From assembly GCA_964016885.1 (NCBI GenBank), contig OZ024746.1:53258001-53322000 (forward strand): a stretch of DNA of 64,000 nucleotides. Reading direction: 5' to 3'. Source of the stretch: Eledone cirrhosa. Taxonomy: Eukaryota. The notes beneath the pieces were generated by a model that did not search any database, had not been told where the DNA came from, and saw only the letters and a list, made by a program, of their open reading frames with translations. Positions 4,901 to 55,850 of the stretch are shown piece by piece (within the stretch, counting starts at the first letter, position 1; the number at the start of each line of letters is the position of its first letter). The position numbers and the translations under genes were made by a program.

Positions 4901-5387
4901 TATATATATATAGGAAAAGTAATTGACAACATCAAGGAGTGCAGTTATATATATATATAATGTGCACACACATGCATGTGTGAGCTTTAAAACACAATTA
5001 TATATATATATATATAATATCGGGATTAGCACTTTCTAGATGCAATACCACACATATTAATGAAACATATGTAAATGGTATGCAATGAATCCCGATCTTG
5101 TACAGTCAACGGTGTATTCATGTAACTCATTATCTAATTGTAATTACTCCATGGATTATTGATTGTGGAACCGTCTAAGCATCACCCTAGGAACAACTTC
5201 AAGCAGTAACCCATATGTTATGCGAGTTAGAAACAACTATGTTGAGACAGTTCTCGAATCACGTTACTCAGACTCAAACTCGAGTAACAGAAACCAATTA
5301 ATAGTATACCTATATGTATATTATCTAAAGACATATTTTCCAGTTCCATCCCGCCTGTCCCCTCAATCTATTTTATTTCTCATTCGT

Positions 5388-5423: not shown

Positions 5424-5627
5424 CCCTCTTCCTGCTATATCAAGCGTTTACCTAATATATACCTTCCATATACTGTACCGATTGTGTTGTTATTTCTGTT
5501 TACCTTTTACATTATATATATATTCCAATTAACAAACTAATTTTATTTATTCAAATAAGCACCTATTTTCAAACTTCGCTTGCTATTTTTAAACAAACCG
5601 TGCTTTGTCTATATATATATATATATA

Positions 5628-5813
5628 TGTTTCTACTTTAGGCACAAGGCCAGCAATTACCCAGTACATTACTGGTACTTTATTTTATCGACCCCATAAG
5701 GATGAAAGACAAAGTTAACCTCGGCGGGATTTGAACTCAGACTGTAAAGAGACATAACTATGCTAGAAAGCATGGCGTCCGACCCTCTACCGATACTGCC
5801 AATTCACTGCCCT
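5628..5813 (-). mobile_element. SINE with Meta-domain-like core (GCCTTTCATCCTTACGGGGTCGATAAAATAAAGTACC)
   Basis: ~190-bp family with many copies in the window. tRNA-like head with B-box GAGTTCAAATCC. Confidence 0.75.
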
Positions 5814-6503
5814 GTATATATATATATATATATATATATAATCATCATCATCATCATCATTTTACGTCTGCATTTCCCTGCTTGCATATAATGTATGTAT
5901 ATATATATTGGTGCTACTAGTAACATGTATCCCAGTACAACCTGTCTCATGGTCGGGTCGTTGGCGACTAAACTGGCAACCCCACCAAGGTTTCTTGGTG
6001 AGGAGGGTGACTTTGGACATCCTGCAGGACTAAAAACAAAACCTGTCAAAGGGCAAAGGAGCTCATAAGTGTCAATGGCCATCCAAAATCACCGGGAGAG
6101 ATGACCCCTTAGCCTTTGTCAAGGCAGAATTCTAGGAGAAGGAAAACTCTGATATAACACCTGCAACCCTGATGGTATCCAATGATGTTGACTTGTTCTT
6201 CTTTTTGGTAAATATCATCTTGGTTAAGAGAGTGGGACTGGCTTTGTGCAGTGCCTTTGCTCACTATAAAAGCTTCACAGCACAGGCATTACTTTATATC
6301 TGGAGATCTTTCTGCACTTGTCACATGGTACCATGGGCCCAGACCTATATGTCAATAATTGTCACAAGTGTAGTGTTTGTACCTGAGTTTTCAAGTCGCT
6401 GGCTGGACTAAAATGTCACACTTGTTCAGCGCATCAGTAGGGGTTCTCCTACATGGATATGGATATAAAGTAGTGGCCGTACTCGAAAACGAGTTGGCAG
6501 CCA

Positions 6504-6565
<62 letters not shown>

Positions 6566-6570
<5 letters not shown>

Positions 6571-6773
6571 AACGAGTAGGACGCCGACGGCTGAGCTCGA
6601 GCCGTTTTGACGGCTAATTCTGGACTAAAATGATTTTAGTCCAGAATTAGCTGTCGAAACGGCTTGAGCTCAGCCGTCGGGGTCCTACTCGTTCCTATTA
6701 CCCACTCTACTACCCTAAGTATTGAGTACTTTGGTGCGTTATGGTCCATCTGGTTCCTTACCACATTTCCTTC

Positions 6774-6776
<3 letters not shown>
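6566..6776 (+). mobile_element. (TA)n-embedded palindromic element with a 5'-truncated hammerhead
   Basis: 66-bp inverted arms (6566-6698, axis G6632, 4 mismatches). The long arm has GAAA-CGGCT-loop-AGCCG-TC (stem III plus GUC site). (TA)n on both sides. Confidence 0.6.
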
Positions 6777-6822
<46 letters not shown>

Positions 6823-7502
6823 TTGAGTTTGCAAAAGGAAAAAATGTTCAATACCAAAGCAGAGAATATTATAATATTATATCATTCTCTGTCTCTAATA
6901 TGAACAACGGAGAGTAAACTTGGTGACATATACATATATATATAATAATAATAATAATAGTAAACTTGATAGATATTCTCATGAACATGATAGAATCTCC
7001 AAATCAAGCTAACAGCATTGCAGCTTCAGTGATTCCTATGAAGAATAAATACACATCTACTTCTATTCGGGGGCTATTTCCTTCATCATGACATTTGTCC
7101 AAGTAATTATATTCTCTCACACATATATCTGGGTATACAATTAGTAAAGAGATAAAAAAAAAAAAGGTAAATAAGTGTATATAGAGATAGTAATCGGTTA
7201 AAAAGTGGAGAAAGTAAAATATAAATTTGATAGTAATAATAACAACATTAATAACTTCTATCATTGATTATATAAGAAATGATAGCTGTGATATGGTGAT
7301 ATGATGGAGCAGGAGTAATAGTAGGAGGAACAATAGCAGTAGGAGAACTGTGCAGTAAACTTACAGAATTCAGGCATGATTAGATCACTTGGGACATCCC
7401 ACACAACGTCACCATCTGTTGTCACTACAGCAGGAGTAGAAAAAAAGAAGGTGGTTGGTCGTTTTTAGTCAGCCAGTGGCAGCAGTAGCAGAACACACAT
7501 TC

Positions 7503-7933
7503 TATATATATATACATATATATATATATATACATATATATGTATATATATACACATATATATGTATATATACATACATATATATATATACATACATACA
7601 TATATATATATACATACATGCACACACATATATATACATATATATGTATATATACATACATACATATACATACATATATATGTATATATACATACATGCA
7701 CACATATATATACATATATATGTATATATACATACATACATACATATATATACATATATATGTATATATACATACATACATACATACACATACATATATA
7801 TGTATATATACATACATACACATACATATATATATATATACATACACATATAGATACATATATATGTATATATACATACATACATACACATATATGTATA
7901 TATACATATATATACATATACATATATATATAT

Positions 7934-20782: not shown

Positions 20783-22339
20783 AGGGCTGGTTATAATTAA
20801 TGATAAGAGGTAGGGCAGTTAATTTAATAAGTAAATATAGATAGCTTTATAAATATAGATAACTGCATGCATACACACACAGTACATAGTCGGGATTGGC
20901 CCTACTATTTAGGTCAACTAAGCTGAAGTGGGGCATTTTACAGAACCTTAAAGAATTAACTTTATATGAATATATATATATAATTGCTTGCATTCAATGA
21001 ATAAGTTGCTGAATATCTTTGCCACATAATAATACTGTAGAAATACCCCAAAGTGGTGGAGAGGTCTGTATGGTGTTTGACCTGTCTTATGATTTGATGT
21101 GGGTGAATGTGGATTATGTAGGGGAAACTGCAGGCTTACTAACTGTTTCAGTGTAGCCAGAACATGAATTGTTGAAAACTAGGTTTGTGAGCTCACCAAG
21201 GTTGAAATTAACTTTGAGATAATGGAGTTTATAACTGAAGGAATGGAGCACACATGTAGGTCTAATTTTGAGTACTAAATACCCAGGTGCCAGTCTAGCA
21301 TGTGGTTGTGGTTTGGACCCAGGTCATCCCTGATTGAGCAAGAGTTGCAATGAAATACATTGCAGCTGTAGCCATCTTGTCCTTTTAGAAGTATATAGTA
21401 CAACATTATCATTTAATAAGTCTTTTTCTTACTTAAAACAGTAGGATAGAATTTCAGAGTGATTTGGTTGCCAAGTTAGGAGTTGAATCTGGCACTCCAT
21501 GTTAAAGCATTTGTCACCCCCACCCAACTTGTCCTCTATACACACATTGCCATATCAAGGCAAACCTCCACAAAAAGCCTCCACCATACTGACAAACAAC
21601 AACACTATTAGCCTGATTTTAAGATAAAGCTATTAAAGGTGAAAATACAACAGCTAGTCGGGCAGGGGGTTATGGAGAAGAATACACATTAATCTTATTT
21701 CACCCTAAGATAATCATGTATATATATGATGCTCACTATCACCTCTGCAATAATTACAACCACCACTACTACCATTGCAATGACACTTCTATTACTACTA
21801 CTATCATCATCACCACCATTGCAACTTCACACACAGCAATGCTACTGGTGGTAGTGATAGTAATAGCTGTTGCTACAGCCCACACCTATATAGGGTTAGC
21901 TGAAGTTGAATCTCACAGGAGGTTTCTGGTAGTGTTATAAGGGTCACAGGACTACCAAGAAAATACAACAATCCATCTCTTGATAAGATGCCAGTCCGTT
22001 GCAGGGTTAATATTCCCCAAGTGGAGTGTCTTGCTCAAGGATATGATGATAGTAGTAGTAGTAGTAGTAGTAGTAATGACAGTCATAGGAGGAATATTCA
22101 TGTTGGTGCTGGAAGTAGTAGTAACCACAATAGTGACTACAGTAAATCACTGTACATAAATATAAAACCTTGGTTTAATCCTTAGTTTAATGAAGACACA
22201 CTACTTCTACTACTACCACCACCACTACCACTACTTATCCTTGATCCCAAGATTATTACAACTAATCCTCAAATTGCTAATGCTGCTGCTATCAGTGGTT
22301 TAATTATACTACTACTTCCATGTCTCTCAAATGTACACA

Positions 22340-24280
22340 GCAACACTACCACCAATCTTACAGCACCACAACCACCAATACTACAGCAGCACTACCACCA
22401 ATACAACACCACTACCACCAATACTACAGCACCACAACCACCAATACTACAGCACCACAACGACCAATACTACAGCACAACAACCACCAATACTACAGCA
22501 CAACAACCACCAATACTACAGCACCACTGCCACCAATCCTACAGCAGCACTACCACCAATACAACACCACTACCACCAATACTACAGCACCACAACCACC
22601 AATACTACAGCACCACAACGACCAATACTACAGCACCACAACGACCAATACTACAGCACAACAACCACCAATACTACAGCACCACTGCCACCAATACTAC
22701 AGCACCACTACCACCAATACTACAGCACCACAACCACCAATACTACAGCACCACAACGACCAATACTACAGCACCACAACAACCAATACTACAGCACCAC
22801 AACCACCAATACTACAGCACCACAACCACCAATACTACAGCACCACAACCACCAATACTACAGCACCACAACCACCAATACTACAGCACCACAACCACCA
22901 ATACTACAGCACCACAACCACCAATACTACAGCACCACAACCACTAATACTACAGCACCACAACCACTAATACTACAGCACAACTACCACCAATACTACA
23001 GCACCACAACCACCAATACTACAGCACCACAACCACCAATACTACAGCACCACAACCACCAATACTACAGCACAACTACCACCAATACTACAGCACCACA
23101 ACCACCAATACTACAACACCACTACCACCAATACAGCACCACTACCACCAATACTACAGCACCACAACCACCAATACTACAGCACCACAACCACCAATAC
23201 TACAGCACCACAACCACCAATACTACAGCACAACTACCACCAATACTACAGCACCACAACCACCAATACTACAGCACCACAACCACTAATACTACAGCAC
23301 AACTACCACCAATACTACAGCACCACAACCACCAATACTACAGCACCACAACCACCAATACTACAGCACCACAACCACTAATACTACAGCACAACTACCA
23401 CCAATACTACAGCACCACAACCACCAATACTACAGCACCACAACCACCAATACTACAGCACAACTACCACCAATACTACAGCACCACAACCACCAATACT
23501 ACAACACCACTACCACCAATACGGCACCACTACCACCAATACTACAGCACCACAACCACCAATACTACAGCACCACAACCACCAATACTACAGCACCACA
23601 ACCACCAATACAGCACCACAACCACCAATACTACAGCACCACAACCACCAATACTACAACACCACTACCACCAATACAGCACCACTACCACCAATACTAC
23701 AGCACCACAACCACCAATACTACAGCACCACAACCACCAATACTACAGCACCACAACCACCAATACTACAGCACCACAACCACCAATACTACAGCACCAC
23801 AACCACCAATACTACAACACCACTACCACCAATACAGCACCACTACCACCAATACTACAGCACCACAACCACCAATACTACAGCACCACAACCACCAATA
23901 CTACAGCACCACAACCACCAATACTACAGCACCACAACCACCAATACTACAGCACAACTACCACCAATACTACAGCACCACAACCACCAATACTACAACA
24001 CCACTACCACCAATACTACAGCACCACAACCACCAATACTACAGCACCACAACCACCAATATTACAGCAGCATTATCACCAATACTACTGCACCACAACC
24101 ACCAATACTACTGCACCACTACCACCAATACTACTGCACCACTACCACCAATACTACAGCACCACACCACCAATACTACAGAAACCACTACTACCAATAC
24201 TACAGTACCACAACCACCAATACTACAGCACCACTACCACCAATACTACAGCACCACAACCACCAATACTACAGCATCAC
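22340..24280. repeat. 23-bp minisatellite (CCACCAATACTACAGCACCACAA)n, ~84 units
   Basis: Direct tandem array with some 20-bp variants. Source of the 663-aa pseudo-ORF. Confidence 0.95.
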
Positions 24281-24499
24281 AATGTAGTGGAATACTCAGC
24301 CACTCACACTATGGATCAATGAATAGACTGTTCCATTGACTGGACAACTGGAACAGCTATCTTCAAAGCTGATAGAGAAGGTACATGGCCTAGTGGAGAA
24401 GGTGTTATGATCATAAGGCTGAGGGTTCAATTCCTGGAATAGTTAGTGCATTATATATTCTTGAGCAAGATTAATTTCCCATTACCTTTCATGAGAGGG

Positions 24500-24908: not shown

Positions 24909-24944
24909 TCTTCTGATGAAGGACTAGCACCTGAAACATTAAGA
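24909..24944 (+). ncRNA. Decayed hammerhead motif, same family as 5388
   Basis: TCTT-CTGATGA-A-GGAC-TAGC-ACCT-GAAA-CA-TT-AAGA. Differences from the 5388 copy are mostly CpG transitions. Confidence 0.5.
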
Positions 24945-38683: not shown

Positions 38684-38756
38684 GACCACATGGCCTAATG
38701 GATAAGGCGTCTGACTTTGAATCAGAAGATTGCGAGTTCGAGTCTCGTTGTGGTCG
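38684..38756 (+). tRNA. tRNA-Arg(TCG)-type body with TTG anticodon; probable pseudogene or SINE head
   Basis: 73-nt cloverleaf: acceptor GACCACA/TGTGGTC, D stem GCCT/AGGC, anticodon stem TCTGA/TCAGA with loop CT-TTG-AA (38717-38719), T arm GCGAG-TTCGAGT-CTCGT. No oligo-T terminator follows; a SINE-like tail does. Confidence 0.8.
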
Positions 38757-39707
38757 CAGATGCATTCATTACAGGGGTGGTGCCCAAGCATGGCCTCAGC
38801 CGGGTGGCTGGAATAGGTAAAAGAGTATACTCAGGTAGAAATTAACATTTTATCCTCACCAAAAGACCTAAATGCTCAACTCTTTTGATACCAACTCATC
38901 TGAATATGTTTGTGTTAAAGCTCAAATTAAAAATAGGGCAACAAAATCATTAAATTGTATATACTTATTCAAAAGCTTTTCCTCAGAATTTTATGTAAGA
39001 TCATTTGTTAAGCTCCAAGCACCAGCTTAACACTTCAGCATTTAAACCGGCCATATCCAGCCAGAATTCTCTCACCTTTTTCTGTTTAAACTGGTCATAA
39101 CTGGTCACTCATACTGATGTTAAGGTATTGTTCTCAAAATAAATATAAAAATTCCATAGATTCAATAAGACGTGAGATAATTATTTGAAGGGTTAATAAT
39201 GAAAAAGATCATTTTCAAAGCTATTTAAACTTTAGGCAGTGTTTCACTTTGAAATACAGTCATGAAAGAGTTAGAAGCAAACCTAAAGTACATTGCTGAT
39301 AGTACACAAAAAAGGAGTGGGCACATAAATCTCCAAAGCCTAGAAACACTCATAGAACTGATAATTCCTCAACTGCTACCACTACAATCTTTCCCTACCA
39401 TTTCTCACTGCCAATGATGTACTAAGTTTATATTCTTCACTACAAAATCACCAGCTGTTACAGATTTATATGCCTGATCCCTAATCACAAAGGTTGTAGC
39501 CAAATTCTTTAAAATCCCTGAGCTCCCACCAACCAAATTACTTTTTCTTCAATGCATTGCTATGTTTTGATATTTTAGGAAAAAAGGATTGGTTTCTGAA
39601 CACTCGCAACAACACATTTTTCTTTTCTTAAAGTTTTTGACACACAAAAACAGAAGCAAGCGCACAAGAAAGATTCTAAAATGAAAAATTCCAAAAGTCC
39701 TACATAC

Positions 39708-39756: not shown

Positions 39757-40811
39757 CTGAAAGAGGAAAGAGAAACAGTATTTAGCCCTTTTGAAGATAA
39801 ACTGCCTGAAACTGCTTATGGTTCAATGATAGAAAACTGGTTATTATAAAGTGTTTATATTTATATAAAACTTTCTATTATAATTTTATGTAAGAACCTT
39901 TGTTTATTTATATTTCAAACACTGGATGAATAATGAGAAATCCCTTCAAATGCTTAATTATTTGAAACACACATGAAGGGTCTTGTTAAAATGGGGTAAT
40001 GGAAGGTATAATCCTTTCATTACCCTATTTTAAGAGAAACCACTCCTGGCTCTATGATTCAGTGAATTTTATTTAACCCTTTAGCATTTAAACAGGCTAT
40101 ATCTGGCCAGAACTCTCTCACCTTTTTCTGTTCAATTAAGTTAAGGTATTATTCTCAAAATAATATCAAAATCTCATAGATTTGATATTATGCAAGGTAA
40201 AAACCTTCATTGTGAAAATACAATAGTATATATATAGTTGTTTCTACTTTTGGCACAAGGCCAGCAAATACCCAGTGCATTACTGGTACTTTAATTTATC
40301 GACCCCGTAAGGATGAAAGGCAAAGTTAACCTCATGTAAATGCTAAAAGATTAAAAGCCTTCCATTAAAATTTTATCTAAGAACCTTCAATAAGTTACAC
40401 TCCAAGTCATAAGAAGCCAGCTGTAGTTTTTTACAGGTGTGAAAGGTAACAAGAGGTTCAGATGCTATTTTTTAACCTTATTGCTACCAAATTGTCCCAT
40501 ATTTTAGAATACTATCATTGTTTTAAAGAGTTTATCTCCTTATAATATATAACCAGCAATTTCTCTGTCTGTCTGTCCGACAGTGGAAACACGTGCGCGC
40601 GTGGTTGCTATCTCTCTCTCTCTCCAGCTATCCCTCTCTTTTAGTCTGTCTGTTTCTCTCACTCTCACTCTTTCTCTTTGTAACACACTAACATTCCTCC
40701 CCTCTATCGCTATGACGAATGGGGAGATGGAGGAGGAGGAGAGAGTCACTTCGTCACTTCACCTCTGCCTTTCTTTCTCTCCCCTCTCACTCCCTCATTA
40801 CGTACAGACAT

Positions 40812-41004
40812 TAGGGCGGTGGATTGGCAGAATCTGTAGAGAGTCGGACACCATGCTTCATAGCATGGAGTTACGTCCCTTTACGGTCTGAGTTCATCAA
40901 ATACCGCCGAGGTTAACTTTGCCTTTCATCCTCACGGGGTCGATAAAATAAAGTACCAGTAATGTACTGGGTAATTGCTGGCCTTGTGCCAAAAGTAGAA
41001 ACAA
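40812..41004 (+). mobile_element. Meta-like SINE nested in the Helitron
   Basis: Full-length match to the family. Confidence 0.75.
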
Positions 41005-41127
41005 TCATTAGAAACATTGCTTCATTTTTACATATCTAAGCATTAGTAAAATAACTAATAATTTCAAAAGTAATTTTTCAATTCCAATTGTTATGAACAG
41101 CAAAACATTAATAATAATTTTGTTCTA

Positions 41128-41350
41128 AGAAATATATATACATTTCTGTGTGTGTAATATATATATATATACACAGAAATATATATACATTTCTGTGTGT
41201 GTAATATATATATATATACACACACAGAAATATATATACATTTCTGTGTGTGTAATATATATATATACACACAGAAATATATATACATTTCTGTGTGTGT
41301 AATATATATATATATACACACAGAAATATATATACATTTCTGTGTGTGTA

Positions 41351-41381
<31 letters not shown>

Positions 41382-41400
41382 GAAATATATATACATTTCT
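41128..41400. repeat. Tandem array of ~48-bp palindromic units
   Basis: (ACACAGAAAT-ATATATAC-ATTTCTGTGT-GTGTAA(TA)n), about 6 units, inside the Helitron. Confidence 0.9.
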
Positions 41401-42257
41401 CTGTTTGACTGTCTGTCTGTCCTTCCCTAAAGCTCAAATGTAGGTGCTACAGAAATATTACCTTCCCCTTCCTTCCTCCACTTTGGTACTACCAAGAGAA
41501 ACACTGTCACTATAGAAACATTACCTTCCCCTCTCCACTGACTTTGGTCACTGAGGCCGGGAGGGGGGGAATTGCTGGTTGGATTTACACCGTGGGAATT
41601 ACACCTTGCACAAGCCAGAAGTAACCAGTTCGAGGCGGTTCTGACTTGACACCATGCCAAGGACCATTTGAAGATATATTTCCATTGTTATATCATAACG
41701 TTTATGTATCATAACGTTTATATTTCCGTCACTAATCTCTTTTTCTCCTTTTTCGTTTTAACATATATTTATTTCAAAGATTTCACCGTATAGATAACAT
41801 ATATATTTATACATGCATAAAAGACACACCGAGAGACGGTGAACATGTGGTGCCGAAAACATTTCTCATCCAAATCTCAACAATATCAGTATATACACTA
41901 GATTTGCTAGCAGAAAACCGCCCACCGGGTGGTTTTCTGCTAGTCTATATATCTAAAACAGAGAATGTCTGTCTGTCTGACTCGAGAACCACCCAACCGA
42001 TTGTTTTCAAACTTTACACATGTAATACTTATAGTCCTGTGAGTGTTTTGAGCAAAAGATATTTCAAATTTTCAATGCCCTAGGGACCGTATTAGACGAT
42101 TAAGTGATCTCTCTCTATAATTCTTAGTCTTTCTTTTTAGATAGATACTTAGATATAACGTTGCGCCCTTATAATATCTGTCTGTATGTCTGAGTGTCTG
42201 CATTACGACATTATGACGTCGCTATCTGTGTGCGTGTGTATATATATATGTATATAA

Positions 42258-42286
<29 letters not shown>

Positions 42287-42288
<2 letters not shown>

Positions 42289-42635
42289 CATCATCATCAT
42301 CATCATTTCATTTTACGTCCGCTTTTTCCCTGCTTGCAAGGGTGGGACGGGAACTGATTCTGGCTTGATTTCTACAGCTGGATGCCCTTCCTAACACCAA
42401 CCTCATTTACAGTGAGTGCTGGGTGCTTTTTTTGCCGTGGCACCTCCACGACCACTTTGCAGTGGAATGATAGGGACCCCAGTCCCTATCATCTCATTTC
42501 TACAGCTGAGTAAACTGGAGCAATGTGAAATAAAGTGTCTTGCTCAAGGAAACAACACATCACCCGGTCTGAGAATTGAACTCACAACCTTTCGATTGCA
42601 AGGCCAATGCTCTAACCACTAAGCCATGTGCCTCC
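42287..42635 (-). mobile_element. Young tRNA-derived SINE (CORE-like CCTTGAGCAAGACACTT, (ATG)n tail)
   Basis: A-box TGGCTTAGTGG and B-box GAGTTCAATTC. Near-identical copies at 46954-47293, 48541-48873 and 52235-52563. Confidence 0.85.
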
Positions 42636-42637
42636 AT

Positions 42638-42693
<56 letters not shown>

Positions 42694-42842
42694 TAAAAAA
42701 ATAATGAATAAAACAATGAAACAGTTCCTTATATTAAACAAAAAAAGTTCATTATTTAACGATCGTTTCTAGGATATATATGTGTTAGAATTGGCATGCA
42801 TATTCAACAGATCTATGTACAATATTATGTAGATTTATCTAC

Positions 42843-42873
<31 letters not shown>

Positions 42874-42876
<3 letters not shown>

Positions 42877-43070
42877 TTAATATAGATGAGATTCTACAGG
42901 ACTAGAACTGTTTCATTCATTAGAAATCATCAGGAATCATTCCTGATGATTTCTAATGAATGAAACAGTTCTAGTCCTGTAGAATCTCATCTATATTAAA
43001 ACTGTTATACTCTGCTATGTATTGAGTACCTTACTTACTGTGGTTACCTCCGATTCAACCCGGAATAACG
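42874..43070 (+). mobile_element. (TA)n-embedded palindromic hammerhead element, copy 1
   Basis: Perfect 64-bp arms (42874-43002) with a 1-nt spacer at 42938. HHR on + (42939-42985: ATTC-CTGATGA-TTTCTAATGAAT-GAAA-CAG-loop-CTG-TA-GAAT) and on - (42890-42938). Confidence 0.8.
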
Positions 43071-43101
<31 letters not shown>

Positions 43102-44774
43102 TTTTCGAAATATTTACTTTTGCGTTCACAGATTGATTATTTTAGTTTCAGAAGATCCCATTAAGGGTGAAAGCAGCGATTCTTTGCTTAAACTTTAATC
43201 TGTCATTTTAATATATATATAATTATATATTCGTGTACAGATATTTTTGCATACACAATAACAAAATATAAACAAACGTATTTATTTCACGAGGCTTGAT
43301 AAGGATAAATATATATCAAATATATAAGAACCCTAGAGCAAATCCTGAGCAACGCCAGGCCATTCTGCTAGTATTATCTAAAATACTTTCATAATTTCAT
43401 GCCAAGTGAATATAAAATTTTGATGAATCTTTAAGTTATGTTCCAAATATTAACATGAGACAGTTCAGTGCTGTTTTGTGTGCGTTTTAAATTCTTGGAT
43501 TAATCATTTAGCATTTAAACTGCCCATATCTAGCCAAAATTCTCTCACACCTTTCTGTTCAAACTGGCTGTAACCAGCCACTCATACTGATGTTAAGGTA
43601 TTATTCTCAATACAAATAATATTAAAATGTCATAGATTTGATATTAACTAAGAAAATATAATAGTAAATATAGAGTAATGTTAAAGCTAAAGGGTTAAAC
43701 AGTTTGTCATGCTCTGAGACTAGACAGGTCATATGACGAGGTTTGCTCATACACTCCATTTTGGCATGGTTTCTATGGTGGGATACTCTTCTACTTTACA
43801 GTGTGTACTGGGTGAATTTTCTTGTGGCACCAGCACCACTATCTTATAGACTGAGCTGGGTGATTTTATAGCACCAGCACCATCTCTTTACAACATCAGG
43901 GTGCTTACTAAATTACTTCAAATTCTTTCGTTATTTCAAAATTATTTGAAACTTTCAATAGAAATATAAGAATGAAAAGTTTATCAGTTATCCAACAATG
44001 GTGGTCACTGTATTTAAATTTCTCACAAATTACACCATATTACTTCAACACTTAATATCCTGTAATAATTTAATAGAAAATATCTAAAAACAGTTTAATT
44101 CAAATGCTTGTAGACAAATCACACTGAAAATTTGCAGGATTTGAGTTAAGACTTTCATTGTAATGAGACCATCATAGTGCTGTTTTGTATTTTTGAAGAA
44201 TGCTTTGCTAACATGGTTTCATGTAGTACAAGACATTAAAAATTAACTATTCTGTAATGAATTTCAGAAAGCAAAATCAGATTTGTTAAATCAAATAAAG
44301 TGTCTTTATTAGTAGACAGATTATGAAATATTGCAGTAGCGAAAAATATGATGTAGTCATAGTGCTGTTTTGTACTTTTCAAGACTATCTCACTAAATGT
44401 GGTACAGGATATTAAGAATTAAAAATGAATAACACACAGGAGAATGTAGTCTTAGATTCACCATGTTTGAAAATATAAATTCCTCATAGGTTTACTAGAC
44501 CAAACTCAATCCACAGCTAACCAGCAAACTGATACATTTTTCTTAGATAACAAGCTTCCATTTTAAATGTTACTTGGAGAATGTGATGAGGTTATGGTCC
44601 AACCCAGCTTTGTCCATCTTAGAACAGCAAGGCAAAGACCATCAACCCTTCCAGCTTTGTCCATCACAGAACTGCTAGGTTAACAAAGGGAGATTATCTG
44701 CCCTTCCTGGTCAACAAAATTGAAAAGAAGGCAAGGTAGTGAGATTAACCTCTCAACACTCCTTTTATACTGGA

Positions 44775-45315
44775 GAAGGGAGAAAGGGAGGAGAATGAGA
44801 AGGAGGAACGGGAGGAGAATGAGGAGGAACGGGAGGAGAATGAGAAGAACGGGAGGAGAATGAGAAGAACGGGAGGAGAATGAGAAGAACGGGAGGAGAA
44901 TGAGAAGAACGGGAGGAGAATGAGAAGAACGGGAGGAGAATGAGAAGGAGGAACGGGAGGAGAAGGAGGAACGGGAGGAGAATGAGAAACGGGAGGAGAA
45001 TGAGAAACGGGAGGAGAATGAGAAACGGGAGGAGAATGAGAAACGGGAGGAGAATGAGAAACGGGAGGAGAATGAGAAGGAGGAACGGGAGGAGAATGAG
45101 AAGGAGGAACGGGAGGAGAATGAGAAGGAGGAACGGGAGGAGAATGAGAAGGAGGAACGGGAGGAGAATGAGAAGGAGGAACGGGAGGAGAATGAGAAGG
45201 AGGAACGGGAGGAGAATGAGAAGGAGGAACGGGAGGAGAATGAGAAGGAGGAACGGGAGGAGAATGAGAAGGAGGAACGGGAGGAGAATGAGAAGGAGGA
45301 ACGGGAGGAGAATAT
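44775..45315. repeat. Polypurine minisatellite with 18/20/24-bp units (GGGAGGAGAATGAGAAGGAGGAAC)
   Basis: Homogeneous blocks of three unit lengths. Confidence 0.95.
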
Positions 45316-46953
45316 AATAAGAGTATAGAGGAAGTGATGATGTCAGGGTAAGAGGAGTAGGATGAGATAGGGGAGGTAAAGGAAGGATGGGGTGTAGGAA
45401 GAGGAGATAGAAGAGGTAAAGGAGACAGACAGGAAGACAGAAAGTGAGTAAGAAATAGGAGGGGTGGGGCAGTGGGTGGAAGAAGGAGGGGTTAAACCAA
45501 GCCACAGGACTTCTTGAACAATTAAGACACTGATGTCTACAGGAAACCAATAACACAGAGACACATACACAATAACATACACACAAACAGATACACTAAC
45601 ACACACAAGACTACACCCAGGCATATACACTAATATACACATTAATAAAAGACATTAAAATACAGATGCAGACTAATACACACACACACACACGCAAACA
45701 AAATACACACACACACATGCAAACAAAATATACACACACACACACACACTTCTATAACCACACACACAGTAATCTGAATCTGACATCCCCACCACATTCT
45801 TATAACTCTAAACCAAACCCTGTTATGCACTCTCCTCAAACATAAAGGAAAAACCATATATATTTCACACACACAAGACAGGTGTGTAAATCTGAGATGC
45901 AAGCACAAATATATATACACACACATTACATAGACAATACTACACACACACATCTAGTCCTGAAGCTAGGGAAGGAAGGCCAGACAGTAGACCTAAATGT
46001 AATACAACTGTCTCTTCCCACTACCACCACCACTACTCTTTAGTGTATATGGAGGGATAGGGAGTCTATCATACCTTTTATTCTATCAACCCCTTGCATT
46101 CAATCTCCTATTCTTTCAGTATTCATTCATGACTTTTTCCTTGGCTGGTTCTCTCTCACTTATTGTGTTTGTTCCTTTTTTAAACACATTCTTGTATTCC
46201 CTCAATCCTTTGCACTCCTCTTCTTCCTTGGCTGGTCTTCCTCACCATTGTGTTATAAACAAACGCTCTCCACATGGAGACACACACAGACCACAGCAAG
46301 TAACAGTAATAGAGGGGAGAGGCTACTGCTGGCTTCTCAGTTAGTGCTGTTGTAGGGTAGGTAGGGTGGGTAATCCCTTAGGGGTCAGTCATTCCTAACA
46401 AAGAACATTGCCCCCTCCTCTCTCTTTTTCTAACTTCCTTACTGACCCAGTTTAATCTGTATCCTTATCTTTAGAAAAAGAAATTCACCCCAATTCCCTG
46501 TCTTTTTGTTGCATTTAACTGTCCCACCCACCAATGACTACATATAAGTTCTCTAGTTGGCCCCCTTCCTCAAGGCTGTCCCTCCATCACAAACCAACAA
46601 GAGATCCTGTATGCGGTTGCTGGACCTGCTAAAAATAATAGCAAATGATCTTAAGATAGAAGAGGTGGGTGAATTCATTAGATAATGTAGTCCTAAATAA
46701 CCTGGAAGAAATTTCCTCATAGGTCTGCTTAACCATATTGATAGCAAAATTCCTAAAACTGTCCCTGATTCTTCACTACAGAAATGTTTGTTTTAAAGTA
46801 TTTAAAAAACTTTCCATTATAATTTTATGTCAGAACTTTTATGTGCCAAACACAAACAGAGTGAAAAAGTTATTCTACTACTAAAAATCTCTCCAATTCT
46901 TGTTTATCTTCAAAATAATTTTAAAATCGCAGGCTGTGCCTTTCATTAAGAAT

Positions 46954-47293
46954 TCATCATCATCATCATTTCATTTTACGTCCACTTTTCCCTGCTTGCA
47001 AGGGTGGGACGGGAACTGATTCTGGCTTGATTTCTACAGCTGGATGCCCTTCCTAACACCAACCTCATTTACAGTGAGTGCTGGGTGCTTTTTTTGCCGT
47101 GGCACCTCCACGACCACTTTGCAGTGGAATGATAGGGACCCCAGTCCCTATCATCTCATTTCTACAGCTGAGTAAACTGGAGCAATGTGAAATAAAGTGT
47201 CTTGCTCAAGGAAACAACACATCGGTCCGAGAATTGAACTCACAACCTTTCGATTGCAAGGCCAATGCTCTAACCACTAAGCCATGTGCCTCC
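46954..47293 (-). mobile_element. Young tRNA-derived SINE copy
   Basis: Near-identical to 42287-42635. Confidence 0.85.
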
Positions 47294-47536
47294 ATATATA
47301 TATATATATATATGTATTAGGTATAAACCGAAGTTATAACTGCTATATATCGGGTACTAAGTTGTTTGAGACAATCACAAAGCACTCAGAGCGGAAATGT
47401 AATACATTGTCCAGAGTAAACAACAGTTAAAAAGTGACACCAGGAAAAATGACAGAAGGAAGTGGCCATACATATACCACAACAACGATTAATACAGAAA
47501 GGTTGGAAACCATATATATATATATATATATATTAT

Positions 47537-47730
47537 CGTTATTCCAGGTTGAATCGGAGGTAACCACAGTAAGTAAGGTACTCAATACATTGCAGAGTAT
47601 AAAAGTTTTAATATAGATGAGATTCTACAGGACTAGAACTGTTTCATTCTTTAGAAATCATCAGGAATCCTGATGATTTCTAAAGAATGAAACAGTTCTA
47701 GTCCTGTAGAATCTCATCTATATTAAAACT
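47537..47730 (-). mobile_element. (TA)n-embedded palindromic hammerhead element, copy 2
   Basis: Same family as 42874-43070 in the opposite orientation. Perfect 63-bp arms (47604-47730), spacer at 47667, HHR core on both strands. Confidence 0.8.
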
Positions 47731-48240
47731 ATATATATATATATAGGTTGGCACCAGTGACGTCGTAACTCATTTCTACAGCTGAGTAAACTGGAACAAC
47801 GTGAAATAAAATGTCTTGCTCAAGGACAACGCATCACTCAGTCTGAGAATCAAACTCACAACCTTTCAATTGCAAGCCCATAGCCTTTCCATTGGACAAC
47901 ATCGGTGTTGTGGAGAGGGGAGGCTGGTATGCATGGGCGACTGCTGGTCTTCCTCAAACAACCTTGCCCAGACTTGTGCCTCAGAGGGAAACTTTCTAGG
48001 TGCAAATCACAAGTCACTCGCGACTGAAGGATGTGTGTGTGTGCGCACCATGTGATTGATTTTGTCTTTCATCTTCCTATTACCAAACTAAGTCATTGAG
48101 CCAATGTGATCAACTACACTTTTCAGGGTGATGTCACAGCATAGCTACAGTTGAGTAACCAGATTAAGGGGTTTAAAAATCCCAGGCAGTGCCTATCAAC
48201 TAAATCTCTTAAGCAGTCTAATGACGGAAACCAGTAAAAG

Positions 48241-48282
<42 letters not shown>

Positions 48283-48401
48283 ATAATAATAATAATATAA
48301 GGATGTTTTGTTAAGCCCTCATTACGTTTATTGATTGGCGATTGGTGACGCATGTCTCGCTATTGATCAGCCTGTCGGACCTCTGCTGTAGTTATGACAC
48401 C

Positions 48402-48435
<34 letters not shown>

Positions 48436-48463
48436 ATATATTAATAAATGCAAACTATATTTG

Positions 48464-48525
48464 TTTTATTATATATATTTCAAGGGCAACCAAGGCAAAT
48501 TATGGTGCGCTTTCATCAGATAAAA
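48464..48525 (-). ncRNA. Type I hammerhead ribozyme motif
   Basis: Minus strand: TTTTAT-CTGATGA-AAGCGCACCA...TGGTTGCCCTT-GAAA-TATATA-TA-ATAAAA. Same family as 49616. Confidence 0.75.
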
Positions 48526-48540
48526 TACAGATTTGTTTTC

Positions 48541-48873
48541 ATTCATTTCATTTTACGTCCGCTTTTCCCTGCTTGCAAAGGTGGAACGGGAACTGATTCT
48601 GGCTAGATTTCTACAGCTGGATGCCCTTCCTAACACCAACCTCATTTTCAGTGAGTGCTGGGTGCTTTTTTGCCGTGGCACCTCCACGACCACTTTGCAG
48701 TGGAATGATAAGGACCCCAGTCCCTATCATCTCATTTCTACAGCTGAGTAAACTGGAGCAATGTGAAATAAAGTGTCTTGCTCAAGGAAACAACACATCA
48801 CCCGGTCTGAGAATTGAACTCACAACCTTTCGATTGTAAGGCCAATGCTCTAACCACTAAGCCATGTGCCTCC
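48541..48873 (-). mobile_element. Young tRNA-derived SINE inserted into a hammerhead element
   Basis: Near-identical to 42287-42635. TGTTTT on both sides; the joined flanks match 49590-49680. Confidence 0.85.
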
Positions 48874-49433
48874 ATGTTTTATAAATAAATATTGACATAC
48901 CCGGAAAAAAAAAAAATTATATATATATATATATGACCAAAGATTAATATAGTTCATTGATTACTCAATGAATATAGTTTTACAATAGATTAAAAGCACT
49001 CTACAGTCAGGTTTTCTGGAGTTATTAATATTATTCAAAATATTAATAAATGAAGACATTCACATAATGAAAATGAAAACGGTCACGCATCATGTCTGTC
49101 TCTTCCTTCTTTCTTTCTTTCCTTTTTTGCAGTTACATATTTCTTCTTCTCCCTTCTATCTCTCTCTCCATCTCTCTTCTTTTGTATCTATCTCTCTCTC
49201 TTGTTCTTCCCTAACAAGTTTATTTACGCATTTAAATATTTATGTATGTGGTTATTTATTTCTTCTTACATTTTCTCATACTCACCCCCTACTTATACTT
49301 ATATCTTGCTCCACATCCTCTTCATCATATTATTTGTGGTATATAAAAGTTGAGATTTGTTGTAATAAATCACTGCCAATACTGGAATTGAACCATCAAA
49401 ACCGTTGTGGTATGTCATACATCAATTCATGTA

Positions 49434-49494
49434 TTTTATCTGACGAGGACGTACTGAAAAACAGCACAGTACCTTCGAAATATATATAATAAAA
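49434..49494 (+). ncRNA. Type I hammerhead ribozyme motif
   Basis: TTTTAT-CTGACGA-GGAC-GTACTG-loop-CAGTAC-CTTC-GAAA-TATATA-TA-ATAAAA. Confidence 0.78.
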
Positions 49495-49615
49495 CATATA
49501 TTTGGATTATGGAAATGTCTTCATTTATTAATATTTTGAATATATATATATCAGTGAATTTCCAACCGATAAGGTATGATTTTCATGAGTATGTCTATTT
49601 ATAAAACAAACTTTG

Positions 49616-49678
49616 TATTTTATCTGATGAAAGCGTATCAATGTGTCTTGATACCCTTGAAATATATATAATAAAATA
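49616..49678 (+). ncRNA. Type I hammerhead ribozyme motif
   Basis: TATTTTAT-CTGATGA-AAG-C-GTATCAA-TGTGTC-TTGATAC-C-CTT-GAAA-TATATA-TA-ATAAAATA. 8-bp stem I, 10-bp stem II, AUA site. Confidence 0.82.
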
Positions 49679-49727
49679 GATATGGTTTTATAAATATAGA
49701 TTCCATTTATTTAATATATACACACAC

Positions 49728-49774
<47 letters not shown>

Positions 49775-52040
49775 TCTTCAACCTTTTTGTATTTATCATT
49801 GTCACATTTTTACTCTGGACGATAATGTTTATGTCTCGATCCATTGAGAGCTTTGTGATTGCCCTAAACAACTCAATTAGTACCTGATATATGGCAACTA
49901 TATATATATATATATATATATATATGGAGAGACAGAGAGAGAGAGGGCGTGAGGCACAAACTTAGTTTTGAAACCATATGGTCTTAAGTTCAGTCTCAAG
50001 GCATGGTACGTTGCTTCTCCACAATTCTGTTTTAATCCTTTAGCATTTACATTACTGTAAAAATATAATAGTAAATATAGAGTAAAGTCTTTACTGTGAA
50101 AATATATCACATAATATCGAACCTATGAGATTTTGATATCTATTTTGAGAAGATCGTAACATCAGTACACAAGCAGACAGTTATGGCTGGTTTGAACAGA
50201 AAGAGGTGAGAGAATTCTGGCTGGATATGGCTGGTTTAAATGCTAAAGGGTTAAAGATGGCAGAACAGATTGGATAATGTAGCCCTTGAAAGACTGACAG
50301 AAAAAGGAGACACCACAATCACATGGCTGGAATGCCTTTCATCATTGGCCTTTTATAAGAGACCAAACCATTAAAATCTTGTACCTGTTTATTTTTTCCA
50401 GCCTGTGATAACATTTATTACATTTGGGACTTCAAAGTTTTATAATAAATGAGTACAAGTGACACTTATTTTAGATTTTTAGTGTGTTCTTTCTCCTACC
50501 TCCATCCAATTTTAGAATGAGGTGTGGAACTTTCTCAACCACTCATCCATAAAGTTAACCATTAGTGTAGAAGATATACTCCCTCACTGACTAATATATA
50601 TATATATATATAAATATATAGCATAGTGTGTGTACCTATATATAGCATCATTTGATAGGGCAAGCAAGACATGGCCACCAAATACACATACACACACTCG
50701 TGTAATCTGAGACAATAATTTAAGCAATGTAAATCTGCCCTGCACAAGTGAATCTTAGAAATACAATACCCTACTCTTGACATTGAGGGCACGCAGATAT
50801 AGTGCTTGGTGTGTGTGTGTGTGTGTGTGTGTATTATAGGCACACACACACCACATGCGATTGATTTTGTCTTTCACCCGCAAGTAATGGAGCTAGCATG
50901 TCACACTATGCCCACTGTTGAGCAACCAGATAAAGGTATACACGAAAATATTTTAGCTCTCAACAAATCTTAGGTGAGAAACAATAAAGTACTAAGTCAC
51001 ACATAAAGTACTAGCTGCCACTCTGTCATAGGCTGGAATGAAACATTTTAAAGCAGGTTTCCTTGAGCAAGATGTCCTTACTTATACTAACCCTGTTTTT
51101 TAACCCTTTAGCATTTACATCACTCTATATATACTACTTTACCTCACATAATATCAAATCTATGAAATGTTGGTGTTATTTATGTTAAGAAAAATATCTT
51201 AACATTAGTGGCCGGTTAGAGCCGGTTTGAACAGAAAGATGTGAGAGAATTCTGGCCGGATACGGCCAGTTTAAATGCCAAAGAATTAAGCACGATATAT
51301 ACTGGTGGCTTTCATTGAACCATTGAGCTGCAGAACGTATTGATTATCAATATGAAGTTGCAGACAGACATACACTTGCACATGTTTTCTATACTGACAA
51401 GGTTGGAAAAGATATCTGGGATAAGAAATGGTCAGATAACTAATCCTTGATTATATATTCCCAGCTTGACACTTCATGAACAAGGAACACAGGTACAAGG
51501 ATTTCTAGGTAGGTACAAATGACAGCATAGGCGAGGTAGGCACACTATTAGCTGAGAAATAGGTAAATAAAGTAATCAAGGTAAAAAAAAATTTGATAGC
51601 TTAGACTAGCCCTAGATAATAGAATTGGTATGATGATTTCTATATACACCACAAGCTATATATCTCACACACACACACACATATCGTTTTTGCATCTGCT
51701 TTTCCATATTTGCAGGGTTTGGACATTGGTCGTGCTTTTCCTAATTTTGGGTTTTACTGGTTGGATGCCCTTCCTGTCACCAACCACTGTACAGCGTGGA
51801 CTGGGTGTATTGTTTGTGCCACCAACACTAGAGAGCTTGTCTTACCGGACCTAGTGTGTGTGTGTGCGTGTGCGTGTTTTTTTTGTTTTTTTTTTCACAA
51901 TATTCATCATTGACTATTCTATTCTGACATGGGTTGATTTATAACCAAGCAGGATATTTCTATTCTTGTACCATTGTGCATGCATAACTGGATGTTTTGA
52001 GGTTTTACACAAAGAATTCCTTTATTTATAGGATATATAT

Positions 52041-52907
52041 ATTCATTTCATTTTACGTCCACTTTTTCCCTTTTTCCCTGCTTGCAAGGGTGGGACGGGA
52101 ACTGATACTGGCTTGATTTCTAACACCAACCTCATTTACAGTGAGTACTGGGTGCTTTTTTGCCGTGGAATGATAGGGACCTCAGTCCCTAGCATCTCAT
52201 TTCTACAGCTGAGTAAATATATATATATATATATGGAGGCACATGGCTTAGTGGTTAGAGCATTGGTCTCGCAATCGAAAGTTTGTGAGTTCAATTCTCA
52301 GACCGGGTGATGTGTTGTTTCCTTGAGCAAGACACTTTATTTCACATTGCTCCAGTTTACTCAGCTGTAGAAATGAGATGATAGGGACTGGGGTCCACTG
52401 CAAAGTGGTCGTGGAGGTGCCACGGCAAAAAAACCACCCAGCACTCACTGTAAATGAGGTTGGTGTTAGGAAGGGCATCCAGCTGTAGAAATTAAGCCAG
52501 AATCAGTTCCCGTCCCACCCTTGCAAGCAGGGAAAAGCGGACGTAAAATGAAATGATGATGATGAAATGATATATTGAAGGCACATGGCTTAATGGTTAG
52601 AGCATTGGGCTTGCAATCAGAAGGTTGTGAGTTTGATTCTCAGACTGGGTGATGCATTGTGTCCTTGAGCAAGACACTTTATTTCACATTGCTCCAGTTC
52701 ACTCAGCTCTAGAAATGAGTTGCGACGTCACTTGTGCCAAGCTGTATCGAATTTTGCCTTTACTATGGACATGAACGGTGTTGTGAAGAGAAGAGACAGG
52801 TATGCATGGACGACTGCAAGTCGTCCACAAACAACCTTGCCCTGACTTGTGCCTCGGAAGGAAACTTTCTAGGTGTAAATCCCATTGTCATTCGTGATCG
52901 AAGGGGG
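52041..52907. mobile_element. SINE cluster: partial minus copy (52041-52216), plus copy (52235-52563), plus copy with tail type 2 (52577-52907)
   Basis: Matches to the SINE copies above. The first two copies face each other across (TA)n. Confidence 0.8.
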
Positions 52908-53284
52908 TTGGGGAGGGGGTTTTTTTTACCCTATATATATGTATATGTCATATATATATGTGTGTGTGCATATATATATATGGTACCACAACATCCAGTC
53001 CAAAATAAATGAGGTCGTGTAGGTGTCACGACAAAAAAAACACACAGTCCACGCTGTAATGTGGCCGTGTAGGTAACATGGTAAAAATCTCCCAGTTCCA
53101 CACTGTAAATGTGGTTGGTGTTAAGAAGGGCATCCAGCCGTAGAAAACCTGCCAGACAGCCCTATACGAGTGAGACATTGTCACCCGACCAATCTTGCCT
53201 CAAGTAGGACAATTTCAGTCTAAACCACCTATGCTAGCGTGGAAGATAGACATTAAACGTTGATGATGATATGTGTGTGTGTGT

Positions 53285-53324
<40 letters not shown>

Positions 53325-55850
53325 ACCAAAATACAATCCCATTTGAAGAAAGTACAGCGTGGCTAGCTGGCCAGACTTGTCTTATGATGTGGGCAACGAG
53401 TCTAAACCATGCAAGCATGGACAAATAGACAAACAGTGATGATTATCATATATATATATGTGCGTTAGTACATACTATCTGCAATGTATCTATAATTAAA
53501 AATAAACAAAGACTGATTCAATGAATTTCCACCTGTCTGTCTGCCTGCGTGTGTGTGTGTGAACACATGTCACTACACATTTGGTTAATATGTATGAGAC
53601 ACACACATGCACATACATGTATGTATGTATATAGTTGTCAACCATGTTTTATATACACTGTATGTAAGCTCCGAATGTAGGTTTTGAACTGCCACATGTC
53701 TGTATGCTGTGCATTTGTAACAGCAACTACATGCCATCAGGTGTTACCACAGACTTACATACAATTATATATTCCAATCGTTGCCTTGCAAGTAGGGAAA
53801 ATGAACATGAAACAAATGAACAAATGATATAAAAGCTGATCATCAGATTGGACCAGGAAAACGATGTTTACATTGTTGATACTATCTGCCAGTTGCAACT
53901 CCTGCATACATACACATACAATATATATATATACACACACATGCATGATGATGGTATAGATAGATATAAATGGAGAAAGACAGACAGACAGACAGACAGA
54001 CAGAGAGAGAGAGATTGAGACAGGCAGGCAGATTGAGGCCGGCAGACAGAGAGAGACAGGCAGACAGACAGAGAGAGACAGGCAGACAGAGAGACAGAGA
54101 CAGACAGAGACAGACAGACAGACAGACAGACAGAGAGACAGAGAGACAGAGAGACTTAATTTTCTGAGAAAGAGAAAATAAGACAACTGATCATGCTATT
54201 TACATGTGTTGTTCAGCCTAGGGCCAACTCTTACCTAACAGGCCTGTCATCTAAGGGCTTTGCAGCTTGTTTACTTTATTTCAGTTTTCAGGTGGTAAGA
54301 TATGATTTGGCTGCTATTTCTAGCATTTTAGATCAACCACCTAGAGGCTCTCTACTTGCCTCGTGTGTGCGTGTGTGTGTTTCCATGTAACAACTGTATA
54401 TTTCATGGATTTGTGTGTCAAAACGTGTGCAAAAACTAGGTTGGTGCATCTTTCTGAAACTGGGTCAGTTTGACTGTAGTGTCTGCATGTGAGTTCATAA
54501 TCAGGTCACCATGTGTAAATTGTGTACTCTGCAGAATAAATAGTACTGCACACGTGTTTTCTTTTATATAAGGTAGTCAAATAAGTATGGGCAGTATGCA
54601 TCACATCATCACCGTTTTACGTCGATTCTTCCACGCTAGCATTTGGATTCATTTCTACAGCTGGATGCCCTTCCTAACACCAACCTCATTTACAGTGAGT
54701 GCTAGGTGCTTTTTTGTCGTGACACCTCCACGACCACTTGGAGAGGCAGGAGTGGGGAAGACCCTATGGTGCCCCAGCTACATGTGCCCTCTTTGGCCCA
54801 TTTTGAGGAGCCGTTGTTCAATGTGTCCTTGTTTTCAAGAGAGTAGCATGTGGTTTGAGGTAGATATGGTTGCTATTTCTAGCAAGCAAGGCAAGCAACT
54901 ATAAAGACTTTTGTTGGGCCTTGTTAATTGTTTAATTATATGTAGTTAATAATAGTGTGGGTAATTGATATACAAAATGTAGTAGTAGTAGTAGTTGTAG
55001 TAGAGTAGTAGTAGTAGCAGTAGTTGTGAGAGTAGTAGTAGTAGCGGTAGTTGTGGGAGTAATAGTAGTAGTTATATATGGATTAGAATAGGTACACTAT
55101 ATCACCATGTTGTAAGAATGGACTAAAAGGATTGGCACTAGGATAAACATTGCTTCAAAAAGTATTGCATCAAGCCTACCATGGGGCCCAGAAAGCTAAC
55201 CCCTGGCATAGCAGGGAAATCCTTAAAATATTTGTAATACTAGGTGATAGTAAAGTTGTAGTAGTAATGCTATTATCACTACAACTGCCATCAAACACAT
55301 ACACAGCCAAAAATTCTTATCAAGACTGACAATATTAACTTGGCTGGCCTCCTAGAAGGTTGCTCTCTTAGGTGTCTTGAGTGTTTTAATAACGCACCCA
55401 GTCCTATCTTTCACACACATACCTATGTTGTTACAACCCACATGTGTGCATTTCATAGCTTTTTCAGGGTTTTAAACACTTTAGCATTTAAACTGGCCAT
55501 ATCCTGCTAGAATTCCCTCACCTCTTTCTGTTCAAACCGGTAGTAACTGGCTGCTCATACTGATGTTAAGATATTGTTCACAAAAATAAATATCAAAATC
55601 TCATAGATTGAATATTGTGTGGTAAAGCCTTTACCACAAAAATATAATAGTAAATATAGAGTAATGTAAATGCTAAAGGGTTAAGGACAGGAGTCCCATT
55701 CCTATCAAAATGTAACAGGAAATGAAATGGTTTGCCCAAGAACACAACACCCTGCCCAATCCAGGAGTTGCCACTATGAGTATTATACCCTAACCACATG
55801 TCCACAGACAACTAAAAACCAGCAACAACAACAAAATCAATAGGTCTTAC

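Follow-up and report, generated by a model that had tools for sequence, protein, structure and literature searches.

The hammerheads (HHRs) found in the window, by which we mean the whole 64-kb stretch analysed here, most probably represent 3' ends of Hydra-clade Penelope-like elements (PLEs) of three subfamilies, whose truncated copies were likely inserted successively at (TA)n tracts, and the tandem pair among them is probably an inert by-product (estimated probability of this reading, about 0.88). At the level of sequence, it is based on the identity of the pieces to PLE pseudo-LTRs (pLTRs), the linkage of HHRs to ORFs for a reverse transcriptase (RT) and a GIY-YIG endonuclease (EN), the presence of TA at the junctions and the location within an intron in antisense orientation. 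A PLE origin, which was absent from the original prediction of three related hammerheads, accounts for all three motifs, for an inverted piece beside them and for their clustering. We therefore regard the window HHRs as members of new subfamilies in a known transposon clade. The three subfamilies are called A, B and C for convenience, and their pieces are listed in Table 1.

Table 1. Pieces of the hammerhead cluster and exons of the surrounding gene, in window coordinates.
Feature	Position	Strand	Basis or remark
16,094-nt GT-AG intron of Musashi-like RRM gene, holding the whole cluster	39757..55850	-	flanking exons with splice sites
Exons of Musashi-like gene	55943-55851, 39756-39708, about 20083-19990, about 17420-17340, about 1960-1875	-	RRM_1 match
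3' part of 5'-truncated family C Hydra-PLE copy	48437..48539	-	motif pattern; 41 family matches listed
HHR C	48464-48525	-	predicted cleavage between 48470 and 48469
tRNA-derived SINE	48540..48875	-	interrupts the pLTR of family C, close to stem I on its upstream side
Upstream remainder of family C pLTR, with 5'-truncation point	48876..48910	-	matches upstream of HHR C in L112, L149, L150
Inverted 5'-truncated 3' piece of family A (tail and extension, no HHR), ending in (TA)n	48918..49074	-	93-94% identity to inverted A ends of L013, L017, L019
5'-truncated family A Hydra-PLE copy (3' UTR/pLTR)	49078..49539	+	84-85% over about 500 nt to L032/L033
HHR A	49434-49494	+	predicted cleavage after 49488
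(TA)6 junction of A and B copies	49540..49551	.	Hydra PLE insertion target as described in PMC8557442
5'-truncated family B Hydra-PLE copy, ending in (TA)(CA)n	49552..49717	+	96% identity to 3' pLTR of L031
HHR B	49616-49678	+	predicted cleavage after 49670

A search of the 64-kb window with the pattern TTTTATCTGAYGA-N15..45-GAAATATATATAATAAAA returned three matches, those of HHR C and HHR A as in Table 1 and one at 49618-49676(+) for HHR B; the 49616 originally given for this third motif is the first base of its 8-bp stem I. None of 100 shuffles of the window matched the pattern. Each motif has the layout of a type I HHR, with a stem I of 6-8 bp, CUGAYGA, stem II, GAA, the 8-mer AUAUAUAU and A17. 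The core (CUGANGA / GAAA / UH) is intact, stems I and II are paired, the cleavage triplet is AUA, and stem III is self-complementary, as required for dimer formation. Furthermore, stem II differs among the motifs and still pairs with retention of its C.C mismatch, as had been predicted: in all three it consists of 3 bp, the C.C and a further 6-7 bp, with a single bulged U in the family C motif. Rfam reported no hammerhead in the window at the gathering threshold or at E<=10, so that it neither names nor refutes the motif. Chance as the origin of the motifs is ruled out by the shuffles together with the genome-wide count of 35,844 copies against none for a reversed control, and by sequence we consider the three motifs confirmed as real minimal type I hammerheads.

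The genome-wide count was obtained with a slightly wider pattern, which has 18,107 + 17,737 = 35,844 exact matches in the 3.0-Gb genome, or about one per 84 kb; it is a lower bound, because subfamilies with ATGCGCAT lie outside the pattern. The reversed control pattern was run across the same genome. The window itself lies on a chromosome-scale contig. Contigs from three sequencing runs of one sample contain many variants of the repeat, and none of the listed pieces spans the stretch. Among the first 100 pattern matches listed, inspection by eye found 12 divergent inverted pairs and 2 same-strand pairs with neighbours less than 1 kb apart. In the mostly open-access literature covered, we found no description of an HHR copy number of this size in a cephalopod.

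The link to PLEs is provided by longer copies of the same families. In locus L031, a near-full-length element, two HHR B copies (at 5194 and 8628) lie 3,434 nt apart in the copies of a 589-nt direct repeat and enclose ORF pieces (5437-7657) that encode a reverse transcriptase (YRDD) and a GIY-YIG-type endonuclease. These pieces contain the motifs RLRWR, DKT, YRDD, CNCRIKSNC (CxCx5C), VYxC..YVG, CKLC and CRH, and have neither a CCHH nor a CxxC between the VY and YVG motifs. Similarly, a full-length C-like element in L162 carries two HHRs, 3,676 nt apart, around RT and EN, so that in both L031 (B) and L162 (C-like) each pLTR flanking the ORF for RT and C-terminal GIY-YIG holds an HHR. When the L031 endonuclease was used as a query, 19 of the 30 loci recovered, the query locus included, had a same-strand B-type HHR 689-1,416 nt downstream; 2 had an inverted HHR only, and 9 had none by pattern within a 1.5-kb flank. 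The family A link consists of two degraded loci, L032 and L033, which have 1,565 nt upstream of the HHR in common. In both, a degraded Hydra-like EN (in L033 also an RT), 37-44% identical to that of L031, ends about 1.2 kb upstream of HHR A.

Assignment to the Hydra clade follows Craig et al (2021; PMC8557442), who describe its diagnostics, its insertion at (TA)n and its carriage of HHRs, and whose elements include Hydra-1_Obim from Octopus bimaculoides. L031 has the RWK/DKT motifs and the CxCX5C linker of this clade and lacks CCHH. Look-alikes of the RT pieces in the Atlas fall into HTH_animal/RVT_1 clusters (0.94-0.97; RVT_1 on 11% of one cluster's members), and those of the endonuclease into GIY-YIG clusters (0.95-0.96; GIY-YIG in 59% of one cluster). 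Searches of Pfam with the ORF pieces of L009, L016 and L031, and of the PDB with the RT piece, gave no informative match. Judged by motifs and Atlas look-alikes, the linked elements match the diagnostics of the Hydra clade.

The arrangement of the pieces in the window is in line with this assignment. All three Hydra-clade traits, (TA)n insertion, 5' truncation and an inverted 5' copy, are present, and an inverted piece joined to the 5' end of a direct copy is described as a PLE insertion signature in PMC8557442. The A insertion abuts another Hydra copy at each of its two TA ends, with the (TA)n end of its inverted piece adjoining the family C remainder. Most B and C copies have (TA)4+ at about 50 or about 144 nt past the cleavage site. 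We infer that nested (TA)n targeting built the cluster; the motifs sit together because successive truncated copies likely inserted at (TA)n tracts flanking earlier ones. The Musashi-like gene, whose introns are very long, encodes an RNA-binding protein with Musashi-1 as its best PDB match (E 4e-14); relative to its transcript, HHRs A and B are antisense and HHR C is sense.

The family C copy is further interrupted by the SINE, which is bordered by AAAAC at either end (48535-48539 and 48876-48880), has a tRNA-like head at 48807-48864 and recurs in the window at about 42300, 46970 and 52200. The 3' piece of this copy terminates in a (TG)n(TA)n microsatellite, with a tail shorter than in sister copies. 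A mobile chimera of SINE and HHR C was considered and rejected, as this combination has two matches genome-wide, the window included, and the tails at the site differ in L041, L047 and L068. The AAAAC site just upstream of stem I of HHR C (window 48535-48880 and these three loci) carries differing SINE/LINE-type ATG-repeat tails in at least four loci, which suggests a recurrent insertion site, although the query was biased toward such loci. In a near-full-length C-type element (L149:4030-4520), a SINE lies inside the 5' pLTR hammerhead's catalytic core.

Covariation in a larger alignment, whose absence, together with that of cleavage in the tandem construct, had been named in advance as refuting the proposal, was found across 21 subfamily representatives. 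Double-sided changes occurred at 8 of 8 tested stem II pairs and 94% of cells pair, with position 10.4/11.4 paired in none of the 21. Pairing reached 92% for the whole structure compared with 36-57% for slid controls, in a set whose sequences are related, whose structure was drawn on family B and in which the letters of stem I and the outer ones of stem III were set by the search patterns. The mismatch is equally evident in a sample of 170 distinct copies, biased toward families A-C, where 139 carry C.C at 10.4/11.4 and 167 leave this position unpaired; among the first 30 pattern matches, 29 have C.C there. The 10.1-11.1 pair in this sample is A-U in 117 copies, G-U in 25 and G-C in 18. Its stem III 8-mers are ATATATAT (102 copies), ATATGTAT (47), ATGCGCAT (14) and ATACGTAT (1), with 6 that are not self-complementary, so that 164 of 170 are self-complementary if G-U is allowed. 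The central letters vary compensatorily, from ATAT to GCGC to ACGT, or to the wobble ATGT. Since these letters would form a loop in the monomer, their covariation argues for pairing between two hammerheads. The changes distinguish subfamilies and hence most likely record selection on actively transposing masters. Covariation had originally been read as the mark of a selected RNA structure; this holds for the structure, but the selection likely acted on transposon masters, not on this locus, and the pattern would be silent on the function of the three window copies.

Compared with the available text of the published descriptions, the window families largely resemble known PLE hammerheads. With Hydra-clade PLEs (PMC8557442) they have in common the C-terminal GIY-YIG endonuclease, the RWK-like (RWR), DKT, CxCX5C and CxxC/CxH motifs without CCHH, the (TA)n target, an HHR near the 3' end, pLTRs, an inverted 5'-truncated copy at the 5' end and a 3' extension. 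They differ from the Hydra HHRs in the supplementary table of that study by a stem II of 9-10 bp with a fixed Y.Y mismatch, by an even 8-nt stem III palindrome in place of the ACCA-A-TGGT of Hydra-1_Obim, and by a pLTR-to-pLTR unit of 3.4-3.7 kb rather than <3 kb. The minimal PLE hammerheads with palindromic helix III (Cervera and de la Pena 2014, PMC4209133) are likewise type I HHRs in pLTRs with a long helix II, a proposed dimer action, many covarying subfamilies, and a predominance of solo copies beside inverted pairs spaced by 100-700 bp. Unlike these, the families described here have no extra nucleotide between 9 and 10.1, a 10.1-11.1 pair that is mostly A-U instead of G-C, the conserved C10.4.Y11.4 mismatch and a longer stem I (6-8 bp). 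The stem II mismatch is not described in the mostly open-access literature covered, although the supplementary alignments of PMC4209133 and the supplements of the 2026 preprint may hold such motifs.

A retrozyme-like unit, as originally proposed for the tandem pair, finds no support in the A-B arrangement. The two predicted scissile bonds delimit 182 nt of 24% GC, and the cores are spaced by 184 nt. In non-LTR retrozymes (Cervera and de la Pena 2020, PMC7229834; Li et al. 2026, preprint), 170-400 nt of non-coding sequence with a low GC content likewise lie between two type I HHRs on one strand, and the A-B unit agrees with them in monomer length (170-400 nt) and GC content (<45%). Unlike them, it is not one repeated monomer in an array: its halves are truncated copies of different PLE subfamilies joined at (TA)6, their unit score is 0.53, and TRF did not include the pair among the tandem repeats listed. 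As the halves come from different subfamilies and form no array, the pair falls outside the definition of a retrozyme, in which homologous monomers that each hold an HHR are repeated in tandem (PMC7229834 and the 2026 preprint). Nor did we find the unit spread in the genome. Matches to a query of 49380-49720 split cleanly into family A for the first half and family B for the second. For the 182-bp unit, 40 of 1,010 candidates were scored, and no near-identical second copy was present in the list of 47 matches. One other listed locus, C8 (84%), covers both halves as a whole A+B unit, but its junction differs and its A core is broken.

Same-strand tandem pairs with units of about 170-235 nt occur elsewhere in the genome, with 20 and 17 in two spacing classes. 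A rough expectation under uniform placement is 2-7 pairs per class, so that the observed numbers are about 3-10-fold higher. This excess is predicted by TA targeting, but weak selection for pairs would predict it too. The spacer contains a TA tract of >=6 nt, a low threshold in AT-rich DNA, in 35 of the 37 pairs, and the junctions of the first 20 pairs are all different. Of the 30 pairs that could be scored (the other 7 have no intact second motif), one has units at least 0.90 alike and two at least 0.85 alike, and a third same-strand motif lies near 1 of the 37. The tandem arrangement in the window is thus very probably a pile-up at a TA microsatellite. Truncated PLE ends likely landed on each other at an AT repeat in an intron, so that the side-by-side pair is probably accidental and not a gene devoted to circular RNA.

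A bolder reading, which we consider unlikely, holds that TA-targeted stacking of truncated Hydra PLEs keeps making chimeric hammerhead pairs (at least 37 here), which, with interchangeable stem III palindromes and stem I strands, would self-cleave as heterodimers and release small circles. The locus would then capture a moment in the origin of retrozymes from PLE ends, and the invariant C.C would signal that a distinct hammerhead variant makes a tertiary or RT-binding contact not described before.

Less probable still is that the accidental A-B pair is already a working heterodimeric HHR, whose + strand transcript is cleaved twice and whose 182-nt RNA is ligated into a circle, a newborn retrozyme. 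Both motifs have intact cores and the same stem III 8-mer ATATATAT, and exchange of their stem I strands gives pairing over 8 and 6 bp. The predicted nested A-B dimer fold is free of pseudoknots, and closure of the 182-nt circle would reconstitute a hybrid HHR where its ends meet; in size and GC content the unit agrees with animal retrozymes as described in PMC7229834, and a 2026 preprint (10.64898/2026.07.22.740005) derives retrozymes from PLE pLTRs. In a nearest-neighbour model, which leaves out the tertiary energy of the core, the ensemble energies of the pair at 37 C are -47.2 kcal/mol for the cis dimer, -43.2 for two monomers and -58.3 without constraint. The dimer would accordingly lie about 4 kcal/mol below two monomers, but about 11 kcal/mol above the free ensemble. 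The pair is also antisense to the host gene, both copies are 5'-truncated, and the genome contains 0 exact matches to the hybrid junction of B stem II and A tail that retrotransposition of a circle should produce. Moreover, single minimal motifs gave no cleavage in PMC4209133, and dimers and trimers of such metazoan PLE hammerheads gave only low cleavage. The suggestion that the palindromic stem III could make the pair a dimeric HHR therefore survives in part: the palindrome points to dimer action and a cis A-B heterodimer is compatible with the sequence, such that cleavage in vitro is possible, while production in vivo would need antisense transcription and the retrozyme-like unit is not supported. 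The intact A and B cores and the modelled advantage of the cis dimer over two monomers are among the points that speak against an inert by-product.

Co-option of the sense-strand HHR C to cut or modulate the Musashi-like pre-mRNA is very unlikely. HHR C does lie in sense orientation in the intron with its core intact, but it is the sole sense-strand motif of its family in the 64-kb window and an ordinary member of a large repeat subfamily, its monomer stem III has only 2 bp, and its distal stem I region is disrupted by the SINE on one side and the shortened tail on the other. It is scarcely credible that the short HHR units are, instead of truncation products, solo retrozyme monomers of a non-autonomous SINE-like family in its own right whose ends are fixed, for although most copies are short and without an ORF, their 5' ends differ from copy to copy, the A copy in the window runs about 350 nt upstream of its HHR, and homology in longer copies continues into the 3' UTR and ORF.

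Under the preferred reading of the motifs as truncated Hydra-PLE ends, function would reside in the autonomous element. There, the two pLTR hammerheads, 3.4-3.7 kb apart, would pair through their self-complementary 8-nt stem III and swap stem I strands, and the dimer would excise an RNA of unit length from a read-through transcript, as proposed in PMC4209133. Selection on this master-element function would explain why stem II covaries and why the pyrimidine mismatch at 10.4/11.4 is fixed. In minimum-energy folds of lone copies, the stem I strand folds back onto the GAAA core; a lone copy, which is also unable to form stem III, would be silent according to these models.

As transposon debris in an intron, the locus itself is of little significance. 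The about 36,000 HHR motifs from many Hydra-PLE subfamilies, by contrast, amount to a natural mutagenesis series. Compensation among the central letters of the stem III palindrome lends comparative support to the proposal, made in 2014, of a dimeric action of PLE hammerheads, and the series points to one structural feature, the fixed 10.4/11.4 pyrimidine mismatch. The role of hammerheads in PLE transposition is still called unclear in the available text of PMC8557442. Should mixed pairs cleave, they would represent one concrete way in which retrozymes can arise from PLE ends.

Other, unrelated type I hammerhead families were seen in the fetched loci L005, L006, L012, L030, L032, L036, L037, L049 and L058, with stem III sequences such as ACCACTGGT, ACCTTTGGT, ACTAGT and ACCGCCGGT; these are likely other PLE families. 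In the window, a short minimal-hammerhead-like motif at 24913 (+), with CTGATGA, a short stem II, GAAACATT and a 4-bp stem I, resembles one in L038 and is possibly, to judge from its sequence, another PLE end. ARAGORN identifies a tRNA gene, Gln(TTG), at 38684-38757 (+), the body of which resembles tRNA-Arg and which we presume may be an anticodon-shifted copy. A strongly strand-skewed tandem repeat with a 23-bp unit in about 85 copies occupies 22337-24282, and a perfect 63-nt inverted repeat with a 1-nt spacer lies between TA tracts at 47604-47730.
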